From Eledone cirrhosa (Eukaryota): 64,000 bases of DNA. The stretch covers positions 13,764,001 to 13,828,000 of the forward strand of contig OZ024757.1 in assembly GCA_964016885.1 (NCBI GenBank). The letters are read 5' to 3'. A model generated the notes under the pieces. It made no database searches and was not told the DNA's origin. It was given only the letters and a program-made list of their open reading frames with translations. This document shows positions 3,721 to 37,270 of the stretch, in pieces (position 1 is the first letter of the stretch; each line of letters starts with the position of its first letter). The translations under genes were made by a program, and so were the position numbers.

Positions 3721-3766
3721 AGTAACGAAACATAAGTCAATTGCATGAACTCATAATTCTTTATTT

Positions 3767-3822
3767 ACTGCTATATATATTTCGATGATAGCCATTGAAT
3801 GGCTATGATCTCATCAGGCAGT
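3767..3822 (-). ncRNA. Minimal type I hammerhead ribozyme
   Basis: Minus strand: ACTGC CTGATGA gatcatagccatt c aatggctatcatc GAAA tatata TA GCAGT; stems I, II and III all pair. Confidence 0.85.
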
Positions 3823-3883
3823 TAGTCAGTTCTTAGATATACCAGCTCTGTTTTTATAGTGTTGATGGTATCAGAGCCTTGGG

Positions 3884-3935
<52 letters not shown>

Positions 3936-3990
3936 TGTTTATTTGCATGTTGCTGGTTGGTTGTTTGTTCTCTGTGTATGTGTTTTCATT

Positions 3991-4037
3991 TTGTCACTGG
4001 AGAGGTCACAGAATGTGTGACGAAAGAACTTTGACAA
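3991..4037 (+). ncRNA. Hammerhead-like motif, core variant CUGGAGA
   Basis: TTGTCA CTGGAGA g gtcaca gaatg tgtgac GAAA gaac TT TGACAA; perfect stems I and II, A6>G core change. Confidence 0.65.
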
Positions 4038-4165
4038 TATATGAACAACCGTCCGGTTGTGGAACCAACCAGCCAACCGGAAATTTATAATTTAATTTAT
4101 AATAAATTGGAGTGAAAGCAACTGGTGCGTGTGTTTCTTATTGGTAACATGACCTCCCAAAGTAT

Positions 4166-4277
<112 letters not shown>

Positions 4278-4470
4278 GTGTGTGTGTAAGTATGTATACG
4301 CACATACATATATGTATGCAGACGTACAGTAGTATGTATATATATACATACATGCACACATATACATTTATTATAATGCTCGGTTTGTTTGTAAACAAAC
4401 AAACAGCCCGAATTACGCCGTACAGTGTTTAGGCAACCACGTCACCTTTTTGTTCAACACTAACACAGTA

Positions 4471-4513
4471 ACGATGTACTAGTTTCAAGCTTACTAGCTA
4501 TCGTCAGCATCGT
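4471..4513 (-). ncRNA. Minimal type I hammerhead ribozyme (left-arm copy)
   Basis: Reverse complement of 4748-4790 with one loop II change. Confidence 0.85.
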
Positions 4514-4747
4514 ATACCTTCCTGCAAGATGGTTGGACGCCTGAAAGTATATATTCTCCTTATGCATATTAACGTCTGAGCAGCCTAATTTGCATATCGA
4601 GTGAGTTTAGTCGGCCGGGCGCACCGAAAACGATAAATGGAATAGAATGAAACGTAATTTCTCGATATGCAAATTAGGCTGCTCACCGTTAATATGCATA
4701 AGGAAAGTATATACTTTCAGACGTTCAACCATCTGGCAGGAAGGTAT

Positions 4748-4790
4748 ACGATGCTGACGATAGCTAATAAGCTTGAAACTAGTACATCGT
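4748..4790 (+). ncRNA. Minimal type I hammerhead ribozyme
   Basis: ACGATG CTGACGA t agct aata agct t GAAA ctag TA CATCGT. Confidence 0.9.
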
Positions 4791-5104
4791 TCCTGTGTCA
4801 GTGTTGAACAAAAAAGTGACGTGGTTGCCTAAACACTGTACGGCGTAATTCGGGCTGTTTGTTTGTTTACAAACAAACCGAGCATTATAATAAATGTTCG
4901 GTAAACCGATACGTGCATATGTATATGTGTGCATGTATGTATATATATAAACATACTACTGTACCTCTGTATACATATATGTATGTACGTATACATACAT
5001 ACATACTTACATTTAAGTAAGTGCCGTACTATGAGTGAGAAATGAAATTTCGTTTCATTCTATTCCATTTATATATATATAACTGTCAATACAATACAAA
5101 CTAT

Positions 5105-5139
<35 letters not shown>

Positions 5140-5199
5140 TGCCAAGACTGGAATTGAACCATCAGCACTGTTGAGGTATGTCATACATCAATTTATATA

Positions 5200-5259
5200 T
5201 TTATCTGATGAGGACGTACTGAGGAAACAGCACAGTACCTCCGAAATATATATAATAAA
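5200..5259 (+). ncRNA. Minimal type I hammerhead ribozyme
   Basis: TTTAT CTGATGA ggacgtactg...cagtacctcc GAAA tatata TA ATAAA; same family as 12321. Confidence 0.85.
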
Positions 5260-5348
5260 ATATATTTGATTACATGAATGTCTATATTTATTAATATTTT
5301 GAATTAATATATATATATAGTTATGTAATAAACAACATAAGGCAATTA

Positions 5349-5409
5349 TTTCATTTACCAGTGGTTTCTTAAAAGCAAAAAAATGTTGCTTTCAATCATC
5401 AGAATGAAA
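5349..5409 (-). ncRNA. Type I hammerhead ribozyme (left-arm copy)
   Basis: Reverse complement of 5475-5535 with one stem II change. Confidence 0.85.
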
Positions 5410-5474
5410 AAATCCTGGCGTATTTATTGACGTTGGATTTTAAAAATCCAACGTCAATAAATACGCCAGGATTT

Positions 5475-5535
5475 TTTCATTCTGATGATTGAAAGCAAAT
5501 TTTTTTTGCTTTTAAGAAACCACTGGTAAATGAAA
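5475..5535 (+). ncRNA. Type I hammerhead ribozyme
   Basis: TTTCATT CTGATGA ttgaaagcaaa tttt tttgcttttaa GAAA ccactgg TA AATGAAA. Confidence 0.9.
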
Positions 5536-5828: not shown

Positions 5829-6012
5829 CAAATTTATACGGGAACAAAATAAAGAGGCAGACAAATAAAGGTTTATTAGGTTCACGCTTTTGAGAGTGAG
5901 ATGGGGGTGGGGGACGTTTCGGGCATAAGCCCTTCTTCAGGAGAAAATAGGTTGGAAGAGAGTTCAGAGGGTGTGTGGAAATACATTCAGAAAAAAGGGG
6001 GAAGAAGTACAA
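5826..6012 (-). mobile_element. (TA)n-inserted element with hammerhead core at 5913-5940
   Basis: Minus: CTGAAGA a gggc ttat gccc GAAA cg TC; related copies at 8426-8568, 9286-9355, 37255-37305, 52768-52843; no local stem I seen. Confidence 0.65.
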
Positions 6013-6099
6013 TGTATATATCTGTATGTATATTTATATGCATATGTATGTATATATATATATATGTATATGTCTATATATGTATGTATATCTGTATGC

Positions 6100-6131
<32 letters not shown>

Positions 6132-6311
6132 CTGTATGTATATCTGTATGCATATATATATATATATGTATATGTATATATCTGTATGTATATCTGTATG
6201 CATATGTATGTATATATATATATGTATATGTATATATCTGTATGTATATCTGTAGGCATATGTATATATATATATATGTATATGTATATATCTGTATGTA
6301 TATCTGTATGC

Positions 6312-6381
<70 letters not shown>

Positions 6382-6603
6382 GTATATTTGTATGTATATA
6401 TATATATATATATATGTATATGTATATATCTGTATGTATATTTGTATGCATATGTATGTATATATATATATGTATATGTATATATCTGTATGTATATATG
6501 TATATGTATATGTATATATATGTATATATATATGTATATGTATATCTGTATGCATATGTATGTATATATATATATGTATATATCTGTATCTATATCTGTA
6601 TGC

Positions 6604-6673
<70 letters not shown>

Positions 6674-6717
6674 GTATATAGCTGTATGTATATCTGTATG
6701 CATATGTATGTATATAC

Positions 6718-6811
<94 letters not shown>
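6013..6811. repeat. Compound (TA)n/TATG/TATCTG microsatellite
   Basis: Direct reading; similar tract at 8125-8940. Confidence 0.95.
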
Positions 6812-6814
<3 letters not shown>

Positions 6815-6880
6815 GAAGAGAGAAGAAACATTTAGATATAATTAGTAATAAAATGTATCATACCTAAACTGTTCCTAAAT

Positions 6881-6968
6881 TCCTCGACTACGTAGTTTCG
6901 TGGCATAAACAAAAACAATATATCAAAGATATAGAGTCCTTGCGAGGTCTGCCGACTTATCAAGAGGA
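6881..6968 (-). ncRNA. Hammerhead ribozyme, U3-A8 variant (inverted copy)
   Basis: Reverse complement of 7209-7296. Confidence 0.8.
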
Positions 6969-7208
6969 TACCTCATTTTACTAGTCTCAAGAACGCGTCT
7001 ACACGACGTGAGAAAGAATCCCAAAAGGCGGAGGGGGAGATAGTCACGCGATATAACGGTCGAGAAACAGAGCTAAGCCTCTTATAACCACGAAAGAGGC
7101 TTAGCTCTGTTTCTCGACCGTTATATCGCGTGACTATCTCCCCCTCCGCCTTTTGGGATTCTTTCTCACGTCGTGTAGACGCGTTCTTGAGACTAGTAAA
7201 ATGAGGTA

Positions 7209-7296
7209 TCCTCTTGATAAGTCGGCAGACCTCGCAAGGACTCTATATCTTTGATATATTGTTTTTGTTTATGCCACGAAACTACGTAGTCGAGGA
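7209..7296 (+). ncRNA. Hammerhead ribozyme, U3-A8 variant
   Basis: TCCTC TTGATAA gt c ggca...tgcc ac GAAA ctacgtag TC GAGGA. Confidence 0.8.
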
Positions 7297-7799
7297 ATTT
7301 AGGAACAGTTTAGGTATGATACATTTTATTACTAATTATATCTAAATGTTTCTTCTCTCTTCATAATGTATTTTTAACTCTGATACTGGTTCAGTCTGGT
7401 TCAAACTGAATTGGTCTGTCCCAGTCATTCATTGAGCAACATCGGTGAAGTTGGCACCCTTAACTCACAGTTGGGTGCGGATGCATTCATGTATATATGT
7501 GTGTGTCCGCATGTATCTGTGTGTTTCTAAATGTATTAATAACTCCCTCTGGTCGAGCAATCTTTGAAGTGTGGGGACAACTGGAAAGCTTCCATTACTC
7601 ATACTTCTCGCCTTCTTCACTACCTCTTCTACGGCCTCGATATGAATACCCCCTCCGCCTCCGTGGTATTTTTTTCGTGGTTATAAGAGGCTTAGCTCTG
7701 TTTCTCGACCGTTATATCGCGTGACTATCTCCCCCTCCGCCTTTTGGGATTCTTTCTCACGTCGTGTAGACGCGTTCTTGAGACTAGTAAAATGAGGTA

Positions 7800-7887
7800 T
7801 CCTCTTGATAAGTCGGCAGACCTCGCAAGGACTCTATATCTTTGATATATTGTTTTTGTTTATGCCACGAAACTACGTAGTCGAGGA
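7800..7887 (+). ncRNA. Hammerhead ribozyme, U3-A8 variant (second tandem copy)
   Basis: Same sequence as 7209-7296, 591 bp downstream. Confidence 0.8.
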
Positions 7888-8121
7888 ATTTAGGAACAGT
7901 TTAGGTATGATACATTTTATTACTAATTATATCTAAATGTTTCTTCTCTCTTCATAATGTATTTTTAACTCTGATACTGGTTCAGTCTGGTTCAAACTGA
8001 ATTGGTCTGTCCCAGTCATTCATTGAGCAACATCGGTGAAGTTGGCACCCTTAACTCACAGTTGGGTGCGGATGCATTCATGTATATATGTGTGTGTCCG
8101 CATGTATCTGTGTGTTTCTAA

Positions 8122-8187
<66 letters not shown>

Positions 8188-8519
8188 GTATATATCTGTA
8201 TGTATATTTGAATGCATATGTATGTATATATATGTATATGTATATATCTGTATGTATATCTGTATGCATATGTATGTATATATATGTATATGTATATATC
8301 TGTATGTATATCTGTATGCATATGTATGTATGTCTGTATGCATATGTATATATATATATATGTATGTATATGTATATATCTGTATCTATATCTGTATGCA
8401 TATGTATATATATATATATATATATAATGGAAAAATTTGAACAGGGACAAAACAGAGAGGCAGTACAACGAATGTTTATTAATTTCACGCTCTGGAGAGT
8501 GGGGTGTTGGTGGGGGGAC

Positions 8520-12288: not shown

Positions 12289-12533
12289 TTAATAAAATAG
12301 ATGTTCTTTTGATCAATTACATTTTATTATACATATTTCGGATGTACAACAGTACGTCCTCATCAGACAAAATATAATGATACATGACATACCCTGAGAT
12401 GTTAAATGGTTAAGATTTAACATCTCAGGGTATGTCATGTATCATTATATTTTGTCTGATGTGGACGTACTGTTGTACCTCTGAAATATGTATAATAAAA
12501 TGTAATTGATCAAAAGAACATCTATTTTATTAA
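12289..12533. repeat. 245 bp fold-back with a hammerhead in each arm
   Basis: 7 nt loop GGTTAAG; right-arm core mutated to CTGATGT (12449-12501). Confidence 0.9.
12321..12373 (-). ncRNA. Minimal type I hammerhead ribozyme
   Basis: Minus: ATTTTGT CTGATGA ggacgtac tgtt gtacatcc GAAA tatgta TA ATAAAAT. Confidence 0.88.
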
Positions 12534-15501: not shown

Positions 15502-15755
15502 CATACATGTGTGTGTGGGTATATGAAATATTATACACTCATACATAAAGTACATTTGATGGAAAGATCTCAATACGCGAAACAAAGTATATATCTAAAT
15601 AGGTATGTATACACAGACACACACTCATATATATATATATATATGTATATATGTGTGTGTGTGTGTGTGTAAAATGTAAACAGAAATAACAATACATTCG
15701 GTACAGTATTTGGAAGGAATATATTAGTTTAACGCTTGAAATAGCAGGAAGAGGG

Positions 15756-15791
15756 TCTTAACGTTTCGGACGCCAGTCCTTCTTCAGAAGA
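15756..15791 (-). ncRNA. Minimal type I hammerhead ribozyme
   Basis: Minus: TCTT CTGAAGA a ggac tggc gtcc GAAA cg TT AAGA. Confidence 0.8.
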
Positions 15792-15884
15792 AAGAAGGAG
15801 AAATTAGAAAGATTGAAAGGACGGGCGGCGTGGAATCGGGAAAAAATGCTTTTAGAGAAAAATAACAGGTCCATTCATGTTGCC

Positions 15885-15947: not shown

Positions 15948-17390
15948 TTGACTCTCTAAACTGCCGTTCACTCACATCCTACTTCTCCCGTGAGGAGCTC
16001 AACATGTCAACAAGTATATCAAGACGTACAACATTGCAATTGTATGTATTCAAGAACATTGATTTATCCACAATGAAAACGATCCAGATATAATTGCCCA
16101 TAACATCAACAAGAACATTCTGTTTACTGCATCAGTAACAAAAAAGTCATCGGTGCTGCAATTAGAGGAGTTGGTTTGACAATACAATCATACCTCCTTC
16201 CTCAACTTACAAAGGTAATTAACACTTTAGCACTTTGGCAAACCGGCCATGTCCAACCAGAATTCTCTCACCACTTTCTGTTCAAACTGGACGTAATTGG
16301 CCACTCATACTGATGTTAAGGTATTGTTCTCAAAATAAATAATATCAAAATCTTATAGATATGATATTGTGTGAGATATTATGTAAGATAAAGACTTTAC
16401 TGTGTAAATACAATAAATATAGAGTAATGTAAATGCTAAAGGGTTAAAGTTTCCACCACCTTTCTTGTGTTGACCTGACGCGTCAAACCTCCAGTACCCC
16501 CACAGGGATGACCAGATTGTCACAGCAGTATTCAAGAGAAATCCCCAAACTGTTGTGATAAGTTGCTATTCACCCCAGAATCATTTACCGGAAGAGGAAG
16601 TCGGACAGTTTTCCCATCAACTGAATGCTACTGTCTCTGAAGTACCCCCAACATACCATGCTAATTATTGGAGGAGACTTCAACGCACAAATTCGAGGCA
16701 AATATTCATACCATCAGTCTACTATCAGAAACAGGACATTTCTTGAAGAGTTTCTGCATCAACATAATCTCCTAGCTGGAAACACCATTTTCCAGGAACC
16801 GAAACGGAAACTGTGGTCTTGGAGACATCCAGCTGGGTATCTTTTCCAAATTGATTTTATCAATTACAGGAAACGATGGAGAAACATCAGTTATAATTGT
16901 CAGGCATATACTTCCTCTGCAGTCATAAGGGGAGATTACAACATCATCGCAGCCAAAGTTAAACTTAGTCTTCGCTCAAACAGGAAATTCAGTGAGAAAC
17001 AGTTTTATTGGAAGTCGCCAAGGGAAGATGTCAACCTTGTAAGAACAATTGACGACTCAATTGCTGATAAGTGTGAATCTTTGCCAGCTGTAGAGAAAAA
17101 ATTATATTTCCTTTGTATCCATAATGAATGGGTGACGAAAAACTATCAAGATGACTCCGTCGAACCACACCCACGGTGGAAAGTGAAGCAATGGATACAG
17201 TCAGAAGTGACATCCTCAAATCTACAGTTTCTGATGAACAGCATCACCAGAGAATTCAGCACTGTACATTTAATCATCTGGAGGAGGGAAGAATCAACCA
17301 AACCTTGTCTGATTTTGAGAATAGACCCAACACCAACAAGGCAACCAGAGAAACTTGGTGACTCATAAAAGAGTTTTCTGGTACGAAGAA
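15943..17390 (+). pseudogene. Decayed non-LTR retrotransposon, APE endonuclease region
   Basis: Motifs across frames: SLNCRSL, IVCIQEH, RGVG, VVISCYSP, IIGGDFNA, WSWRHP..QIDFI, GDYNII; stops and frameshifts. Confidence 0.85.
16219..16447. mobile_element. piggyBac-type MITE inserted in the LINE
   Basis: TTAA-CACTTTAGCA ... TGCTAAAGGG-TTAA. Confidence 0.8.
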
Positions 17391-36740: not shown

Positions 36741-37088
36741 TTGACAGGTTAGATCATATATAATAACGGTCGCTCTCTAGTCCCCCCCCCCCACCTCTAT
36801 AAATTATATTGACCTTTCACTCAGGAGTAGTTTGTTAAAACTACTGCGTCGTCTCAGAGATTTCTCCCCCACTTCTTCTATCGTGTTCCCACACTACCCG
36901 CCCCCCTCCTCCTCCTTCACCTCACTCTATCTACCAAGTCTTTGATGGTTTATCGTTTGACATTCATAAACATCTAACTTTCTTGAAGTACGAAACACCA
37001 ACTTCAGCACCATCAATATTGTCATCGCCTCCAGTGTGGTTATATATATATATATATATATAAGCAGAAGGGATATTCACTTCGTATG

Positions 37089-37141
37089 TTATCTGATGAT
37101 AGCGTACCAAAATTTTGGTACCCTTGAAATATATATAATAG
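37089..37141 (+). ncRNA. Minimal type I hammerhead ribozyme
   Basis: TTAT CTGATGA tagc gtaccaaa at tttggtac cctt GAAA tatata TA ATAG. Confidence 0.8.
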
Positions 37142-37270
37142 AATAAATATGGTTTTATAAATAGTTTCCATTTATTTAATATCATTGTATATATATATAT
37201 ATATTGCCATCGCCTCCAGTGTGGTTATATATGTGTGTCTGTGTATATGTGAGAGTAAAGGTGTGGGTGA

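Follow-up and report, generated by a model that had tools for sequence, protein, structure and literature searches.

A non-coding 591-bp hammerhead repeat of Eledone cirrhosa and its probable insertion into (TA)n by Penelope-type enzymes

Animal non-LTR retrozymes are described, in the available parts of the sources, with units of 170-400 nt, a range that is descriptive and not a definition (PMC7229834; bioRxiv 10.64898/2026.07.22.740005). Retrozyme circles have been reported (PMC7229834), and cleavage failed in eight of nine dimers of Xenopus retrozymes (bioRxiv 2026.07.22.740005). The hammerheads of Penelope-type elements (PLEs) are slow in vitro according to the accessible text of PMC4209133. 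For an anole PLE, two internal RT starts and a predicted dimer were described; insertion in vitro was retained in ribozyme mutants, and the template was mainly uncut RNA (PMC11167929). The mechanism of tandem or inverted PLE insertions with a tail at one end is termed undefined in PMC8557442. Natural U3-A8 hammerheads have been published and are stated to be active in vitro (PMC3088659), and about 1,300 matches were found among Penelope-type hammerheads of Schistosoma (PMC4209133); the U3-A8 core is rare but already known.

The repeat analysed here lies in a stretch of 64,000 nucleotides (the window). It is a young copy of a non-coding mobile repeat with thousands of copies genome-wide, and represents a family of animal non-LTR retrozymes that is new and whose insertion footprint is informative. 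According to the preferred reading, to which a probability of roughly 70 % is given, the 591-bp unit, non-coding and carrying a predicted U3-A8 hammerhead, is inserted as two head-to-head arms into (TA)n by Penelope enzymes from an RNA that is likely circular.

Like animal non-LTR retrozymes in the text available (PMC7229834, bioRxiv 2026.07.22.740005), the family consists of non-coding tandem units with one type I hammerhead each, has a GC content below 50 % (44 % over 520 sites), pairs strongly with itself, occurs in thousands of copies and shares its genome with PLEs. Unlike these, it has a unit of 591-597 nt instead of 170-400 nt, a U3-A8 core, a long stem II extension and frequent two-arm inverted insertions with fixed ends; circular RNA is reported for retrozymes elsewhere, and in this family the circle is predicted. 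With PLE hammerheads, including the U3-A8 family of Schistosoma mansoni (PMC4209133, as far as accessible), it shares the U3-A8 pair, a palindromic stem III, a long bulged stem II, a 5-bp stem I and copies on opposite strands that lie close together; in contrast to them, the palindrome is longer (10 nt), the stem II extension measures about 44 nt, and the host is a tandem non-coding unit and not a single motif. EN+ PLEs resemble it in their partial tandems with an inverted 5′-truncated arm and a tail at one end (PMC8557442, PMC3846280) and in an AT-rich or microsatellite target (microsatellite bias in PMC8557442), and anole Poseidon PAc in having two RT starts downstream of the hammerhead cut (PMC11167929). 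Compared with the accessible descriptions of EN+ PLEs, the unit is without an ORF, the tail has 165 nt against 30-40, and a strict pairing of one site per strand was counted; the start sites are target-like here and not so in PAc (PMC11167929).

Layout of the insertion and its family

In the genome searched (3.0 Gb, 1,796 contigs), the 3′ half of the ribozyme was matched exactly 7,458 times and the 5′ half carrying U3-A8 5,898 times. Altogether 149 stretches were analysed: set A (68 picked by ribozyme patterns, and the window), in which 22 overlapping loci were swapped for longer stretches or removed as duplicates, and set B (80 picked by 3′-end patterns, not by the ribozyme). All stretches except the window were from the first 122 Mb of contig C1. 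Of the 229 arms in them, most agree with the window unit at 95-100 % identity, and older copies go down to about 75-85 %. Units were numbered from the first base past the predicted cut (u1 = 7292).

The original prediction had described a 591-bp tandem unit at 6812..8124 with three hammerhead cores. The location was right; the true limits of the element are 6806-8127, where two head-to-head arms lie between two (TA)n tracts (Table 1). All three cores are present, but in a single insertion, whose array comprises only 1.75 units plus an inverted arm, so that they represent one event and not three separate observations. Three features had been overlooked, namely the arrangement in two arms with one inverted, the target of (TA)n and the pair of fixed 3′ ends; taken together, they mark the element as Penelope-mobilised. 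At 443/443 positions the direct copies (7094-7536 and 7685-8127) agree, and the inverted third copy, the 290-nt minus-strand arm, has one mismatch (6809), at which the letter agrees with the TA target and not with the element. As a target-site duplication was checked for, (TA)n was found on both sides, where a duplication leaves no readable mark. A coding role was rejected because all six frames of the unit are broken by stops; an RT/GIY-YIG ORF, sought in the 591-bp unit, is absent from it and present in other elements of the genome.

Table 1. Positions of the insertion, its arms, hammerheads and end sites in the window
Feature	Position	Strand
Left (TA)n-rich target flank	6015-6811	
Entire insertion into a (TA)n/TATG microsatellite, with two head-to-head arms	6806-8127	
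Short arm, 290 nt, u382 to u80, 3′ end at fixed site A	6806-7095	-
Hammerhead copy of the inverted arm, core start 6963, predicted cut 6886/6885	6881-6968	-
Junction of the 5′ ends of both arms, 2-nt overlap	7094-7095	
Long arm from u394 to u245 (1,034 nt, 1.75 units), with fixed site B as 3′ end	7094-8127	+
Type I hammerhead 1, stem I 7209-7213/7292-7296, core 7214-7220 (U3 = 7214, A8 = 7219)	7209-7296	+
Hammerhead 1, stem II, bulge 7223; GAAA 7278-7281	7221-7227/7272-7277	+
Predicted helical extension of stem II, 7234-7241/7261-7268 and 7244-7249/7253-7258	7234-7268	+
Hammerhead 1, palindromic stem III, predicted cut 7291/7292	7281-7290	+
Monomer, 591 nt from cut to cut, non-coding, strongly self-paired, predicted circle	7292-7882	+
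Site A, u73-80, TAATGTAT, probable reverse-transcription start, read through here; repeated at 7955-7962	7364-7371	+
Site B, u238-245, AAATGTAT, second probable start, internal copy	7529-7536	+
Type I hammerhead 2, core 7805-7811, predicted cut 7882/7883	7800-7887	+
Site B serving as 3′ end of the long arm	8120-8127	+
Right (TA)n-rich target flank	8125-8426	

The hammerhead motif and its conservation

By motif search the TTGATAA core was confirmed at +7214, +7805 and -6963, as were stem I (TCCTC/GAGGA; second copy at 7800-7804/7883-7887), the palindrome ACTACGTAGT (second copy at 7872-7881) and the spacing of 591 bp between the sense copies, with C17 at 7291 and 7882. The identity of the motif as a type I hammerhead with a U3-A8 covariant was upheld by these sequence-level checks. 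A strict hammerhead descriptor gave 237 family matches in 804 kb of DNA and 0 in two block shuffles, so the motif is not due to chance. U3-A8 with GUC was present in 125/127 full copies of set A, which was partly selected by that motif.

Stem II consists of 6 bp with a bulge and is prolonged by a long helix; the hammerhead is not compact. The three-helix fold, open at stem I, had a constrained energy of -21.5 kcal/mol against an MFE of -22.9 kcal/mol, and 98.9 % of the alignment cells were paired across the hammerhead helices (19 variants, picked for recurrence or divergence). An Rfam search gave no match at gathering score and no hammerhead family among 150 of 216 matches listed at E<=10, likely owing to the long stem II insertion and the variant core; matches to Rfam miRNA families were rejected as artefacts of inverted repeats and TA runs. 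The folding energy of the monomer was z -5.9 as linear RNA and -5.8 as a circle, and that of the ribozyme region alone was unremarkable (z -0.5). Stem III formed no hairpin by itself; its calculated self-duplex (-12.9 kcal/mol) would fit the dimer mode described for PLE hammerheads in the accessible text of PMC4209133.

With the same flanks, the genome pattern counts were 5,898 U3-A8, 8 C3-A8, 8 U3-G8 and 0 C3-G8, and in set B U3 and A8 were present in all 70 covered loci. U3-A8 is fixed in the family, and the rare changes are single and mostly later mutations. The three copies in the window prove nothing on compensation, and when the alignment of other copies at positions 3 and 8 that had been proposed was run, it contained no covariation in the family, only the rare single changes. 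Outside the family, the strict descriptor identified nine hammerheads in 804 kb (3 C3-G8 and 6 U3-A8, none mismatched) and 0 in two shuffles of the same DNA; across hammerhead families of this genome, the 3-8 pair covaries. The U3-A8 core had been put forward as a compensatory change; the pair covaries between families and not within this one, and the covariant itself is a published natural one.

Two observations concern these positions. Related small hammerheads with the same stems occur at L126:2642 (U3-A8) and at window position -15787 (C3-G8), a true 3-8 covariation between close families. An uncompensated U3-G8 core is present in two units 591 bp apart (G000:C19:18237719 and 18238310).

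For selection on the ribozyme, variants common to several loci were taken as marks of lineages that kept transposing. With all loci, variants in at least 5 loci were present at 0/42 core and stem positions and at 62/508 positions elsewhere (p=0.005), a figure biased by the choice of set A by ribozyme patterns. In set B, variants in at least 2 loci affected 2/42 core and stem positions against 77/463 elsewhere (p=0.026), those in at least 3 loci 0/42 against 44/463 (p=0.018) and those in at least 4 loci, more weakly, 0/42 against 29/463 (p=0.075). Singleton variants were not depleted in core and stems (22/3,004 against 163/30,067 elsewhere; set B). The proposal that catalysis was under selection is supported to this extent: inherited variants of core and stems are lacking, the hammerhead cores of other families keep the 3-8 pairing in 9/9 cases, and selection on core and stems is what the variant pattern suggests. 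In the stem II extension, 8/14 pairs varied one-sidedly (A-U/G-U swaps) and none on both sides in the 19 variants; over all helices these variants had 0 two-sided pair changes, and the alignment was no better than shuffles. In the L035 array, a stem I mismatch occurs in all three copies.

As a separate observation, inherited non-CpG variants of the unit (7292-7882) are mostly A/G (32 against 11 C/T, p=2e-5), and 10/11 A>G changes from old to young copies lie opposite U in predicted helices. The A/G excess could be due to A-to-I editing or to tolerance of G-U pairs; a polarised test for A-to-I editing, with 11 A>G and 8 T>C changes, did not reach significance (p=0.11). Possible editing of this kind would, if true, feed the evolution of the 591-nt RNA.

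Fixed ends and their pairing on the two strands

The 5′ ends of the arms vary, but on the 3′ side almost every arm stops at one of two fixed sites, A at u80 or B at about u245, which lie 80 and 245 nt past the cut site; both read AATRTAT, followed by (TA)n. Genome-wide, 2,697 ends of A type and 1,233 of B type (the pattern of one subfamily) were counted. Among the 229 arms, 217 passed the filter (end at site A or B, >=88 % identity, not cut by a locus edge). Position u77 is G in 192/192 internal copies but A at 22/117 termini, a pattern that priming by a TA target paired with the RNA would be expected to leave.

Seventy-seven inverted junctions were found, of which 71 were A+B, 0 A+A, 0 B+B and 6 with an atypical end; under slightly wider limits the A+B junctions numbered 72, and both junctions of L089 are duplicates. 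Since the selection of loci set the end of at most one arm, the end of the partner arm was free. In LINE-1 twin priming one arm stops where the other starts; such a mechanism was rejected here, as only 3/72 pairs abut and arm lengths (medians 512 and 497) are uncorrelated (rho -0.10). The paired fixed ends likely record how Penelope-type enzymes copy RNA into both DNA strands. A statement of a strict one-site-per-strand rule was not found in the literature searched, mostly open-access papers without supplements. This footprint, and not the U3-A8 core, is the useful part: the insertions of the family number thousands, are nearly identical and follow a rule that can be counted (71 A+B, 0 like-with-like).

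Candidates for the enzyme were sought among the GIY-YIG matches in the genome (at least 150). At locus L238, a 938-aa frame with RT and GIY-YIG domains is flanked by direct repeats that carry another U3-A8 hammerhead with palindromic stem III. Most copies of the L238 family run into (TA)n about +143 from the cut and the others at +77/78, its two-arm loci L210 and L249 pair the long with the short end, and in run X3 loose TA ends of the family were present at both places (38 and 41 contigs). The Penelope-mobilised layout, with tandem and inverted arms, a tail at one end and a microsatellite target, is thus the same in this autonomous family. A search for pLTR homology to the 591-nt unit in 50 of the at least 150 GIY-YIG loci gave only simple repeats, plus a neighbouring family insertion in L204. 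Having no DNA similarity to the unit beyond simple repeats, L238 serves as a model for the partner and is not put forward as the partner itself. PLEs of this autonomous type (U3-A8 minimal hammerhead, TA target, two fixed 3′ ends) were noted at L238:1452-6431 (-) and in L239, L247 and L249; a very high depth over the L238 terminal repeat in run X3 suggests many short derivatives.

Template RNA and mode of insertion

Comparison at 62 diagnostic sites showed a discordance of 0.6 % inside single arms, of 1.5 % for arms of the same locus, a value raised by an unrelated old copy in L102, and of 16 % for different loci; only 2/51 informative junctioned pairs differed at >=3 sites, against 54 % for shuffled partners. 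Both arms usually come from one template type. The arms of L173 belong to different subfamilies (10/57 diagnostic sites differ), so two RNA molecules can be used in one insertion. Arms stop at about 0.18 % per base, and 152/154 arm passes in set B cross the cut site, from which it follows that the usual template was continuous there (circular or uncut RNA); a linear cut monomer as main template was rejected on the same count. The longest arm has 2,907 nt, arms reach 4.9 near-identical units, and 27 variants private to one locus occur there in every copy. From the homogeneity of the units and the multi-unit arms we infer that a circle is favoured over linear arrays. The A+B rule, the shared template type and the read-through at the cut lead to sharp predictions for an in vitro PLE assay and for RNA sequencing, and bear on the question whether retrozyme circles are real templates.

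Starts at the cut were counted separately. In the sampled arms a pile-up at the cut was not significant (2 stops in u1-5, 1.8 expected), and u1-20 held 13 stops with 7.3 expected (p=0.035, uncorrected). Genome-wide, 29 arms start exactly at u1; on inspection of all of them, none ran into the ribozyme, and four look like one duplicated event, leaving 26 independent. Two control sites with the same filter had 6 and 11 starts, which were not inspected (p=0.002 against the cut, exposure-scaled). A third, with a different filter, had 14 starts; on the flank letters common to both filters the counts were 14 against 8, so the excess at the cut is only about 2-3 fold. By eye, the partner arm also starts in u1-10 in 5/17 two-arm loci with a cut start, compared with a general background of 8/77 pairs having both starts within 10 nt. 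These counts are modest evidence for the existence of cut RNA and for its occasional copying. Two old copies, L083:2442-2736 and L088:2016-2330, have both arms beginning at or a few bases from the cut.

In the preferred reading, tandem copies would be transcribed and their hammerheads would cut at GUC, where the palindromic stem III probably holds them together as dimers; the 591-nt monomer would be released and ligated into a circle, which is the likeliest model for the origin of the template. A Penelope RT/GIY-YIG protein would nick (TA)n, and cDNA would be primed inside the RNA, at the AATRTAT sites u80 and u245, which allow it to pair with the target. An enzyme acting as a putative dimer would prime both strands, site A on one and site B on the other, rolling copying of the circle would give multi-unit arms, and the two cDNAs would be joined at a short overlap. 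The small minority of arms beginning at the cut would have been copied from cut, unligated RNA. That an enzyme dimer primes both (TA)n strands at two target-like sites of a ribozyme-made RNA circle, one per strand, and rolls round it is held tentatively, at a little under even odds; if true, it would explain the Penelope tail, the inverted arm and the partial tandems in one step.

It is unlikely, though well worth weighing, that a Penelope enzyme inserted mostly uncut read-through multimers, or a monomer with jumps of the enzyme, so that cutting would be rare and no circle needed; in another form of this explanation, the hammerhead would cut only to free the RNA from upstream sequence. The 152/154 passes across the cut agree with it, as do the uncut RNA that is the dominant substrate of the anole PLE (PMC11167929, accessible part), the slowness of PLE hammerheads in vitro (PMC4209133, likewise) and the arms starting at the cut, by which linear cut RNA would exist. 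Copying from a linear array, however, only shortens it and leaves a new mutation in one unit, whereas subfamily and private variants are common to all units of an array, arms extend to 4.9 units, and only 10/139 within-arm differences recur in another locus. Very improbable is a hammerhead that is an inactive relic inherited from a Penelope pLTR and kept only as a binding site for the PLE protein: U3-A8 without covariation inside the family, single mutants copied into whole arrays and the lack of an Rfam match would suit it, but even in copies of about 85 % identity the unpaired letters of the core vary no more than the stems, arms start in excess at the exact cut, and the partner also starts in u1-10 in 5/17 cut-start two-arm loci (by eye) against the background of 8/77. 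A satellite amplified on the DNA level by unequal crossover and fold-back, with no RNA step, would account for identical tandem units and an inverted arm but is already refuted by the dispersal of the family as thousands of short arrays, by 5′ ends that vary while the 3′ ends are fixed at two sites, by end mismatches derived from the target and by the A+B rule.

Signs of transcription were also considered by comparing contigs of four runs with the unit. A single 621-nt contig of X1 (591+30) was rejected as evidence of expression because a circle and a tandem array both give it, and the contigs of X1 and X6 were rejected because pieces of an unrelated PLE are there too, which trace DNA explains. 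A word near 7400, which we took to resemble a Pol III B box, was rejected, being absent from older copies (L083, by eye).

Other repeats were noted in the window. Nine more C3-G8 hammerhead-like motifs belong to other repeat families (3760-5530, 12310-12380, 15750-15800 and 37080-37150), some of them as inverted pairs (-4507/+4754 and -5402/+5482). The minus strand has three copies of a short repeat, at 5913, 8520 and 37271, in which a hammerhead-like motif of minimal size (palindrome ACGT) occurs; two of these copies flank the insertion. At 16625-17365 (+), an open frame of 247 codons resembles, by eye, a LINE endonuclease fragment and is regarded as a candidate.
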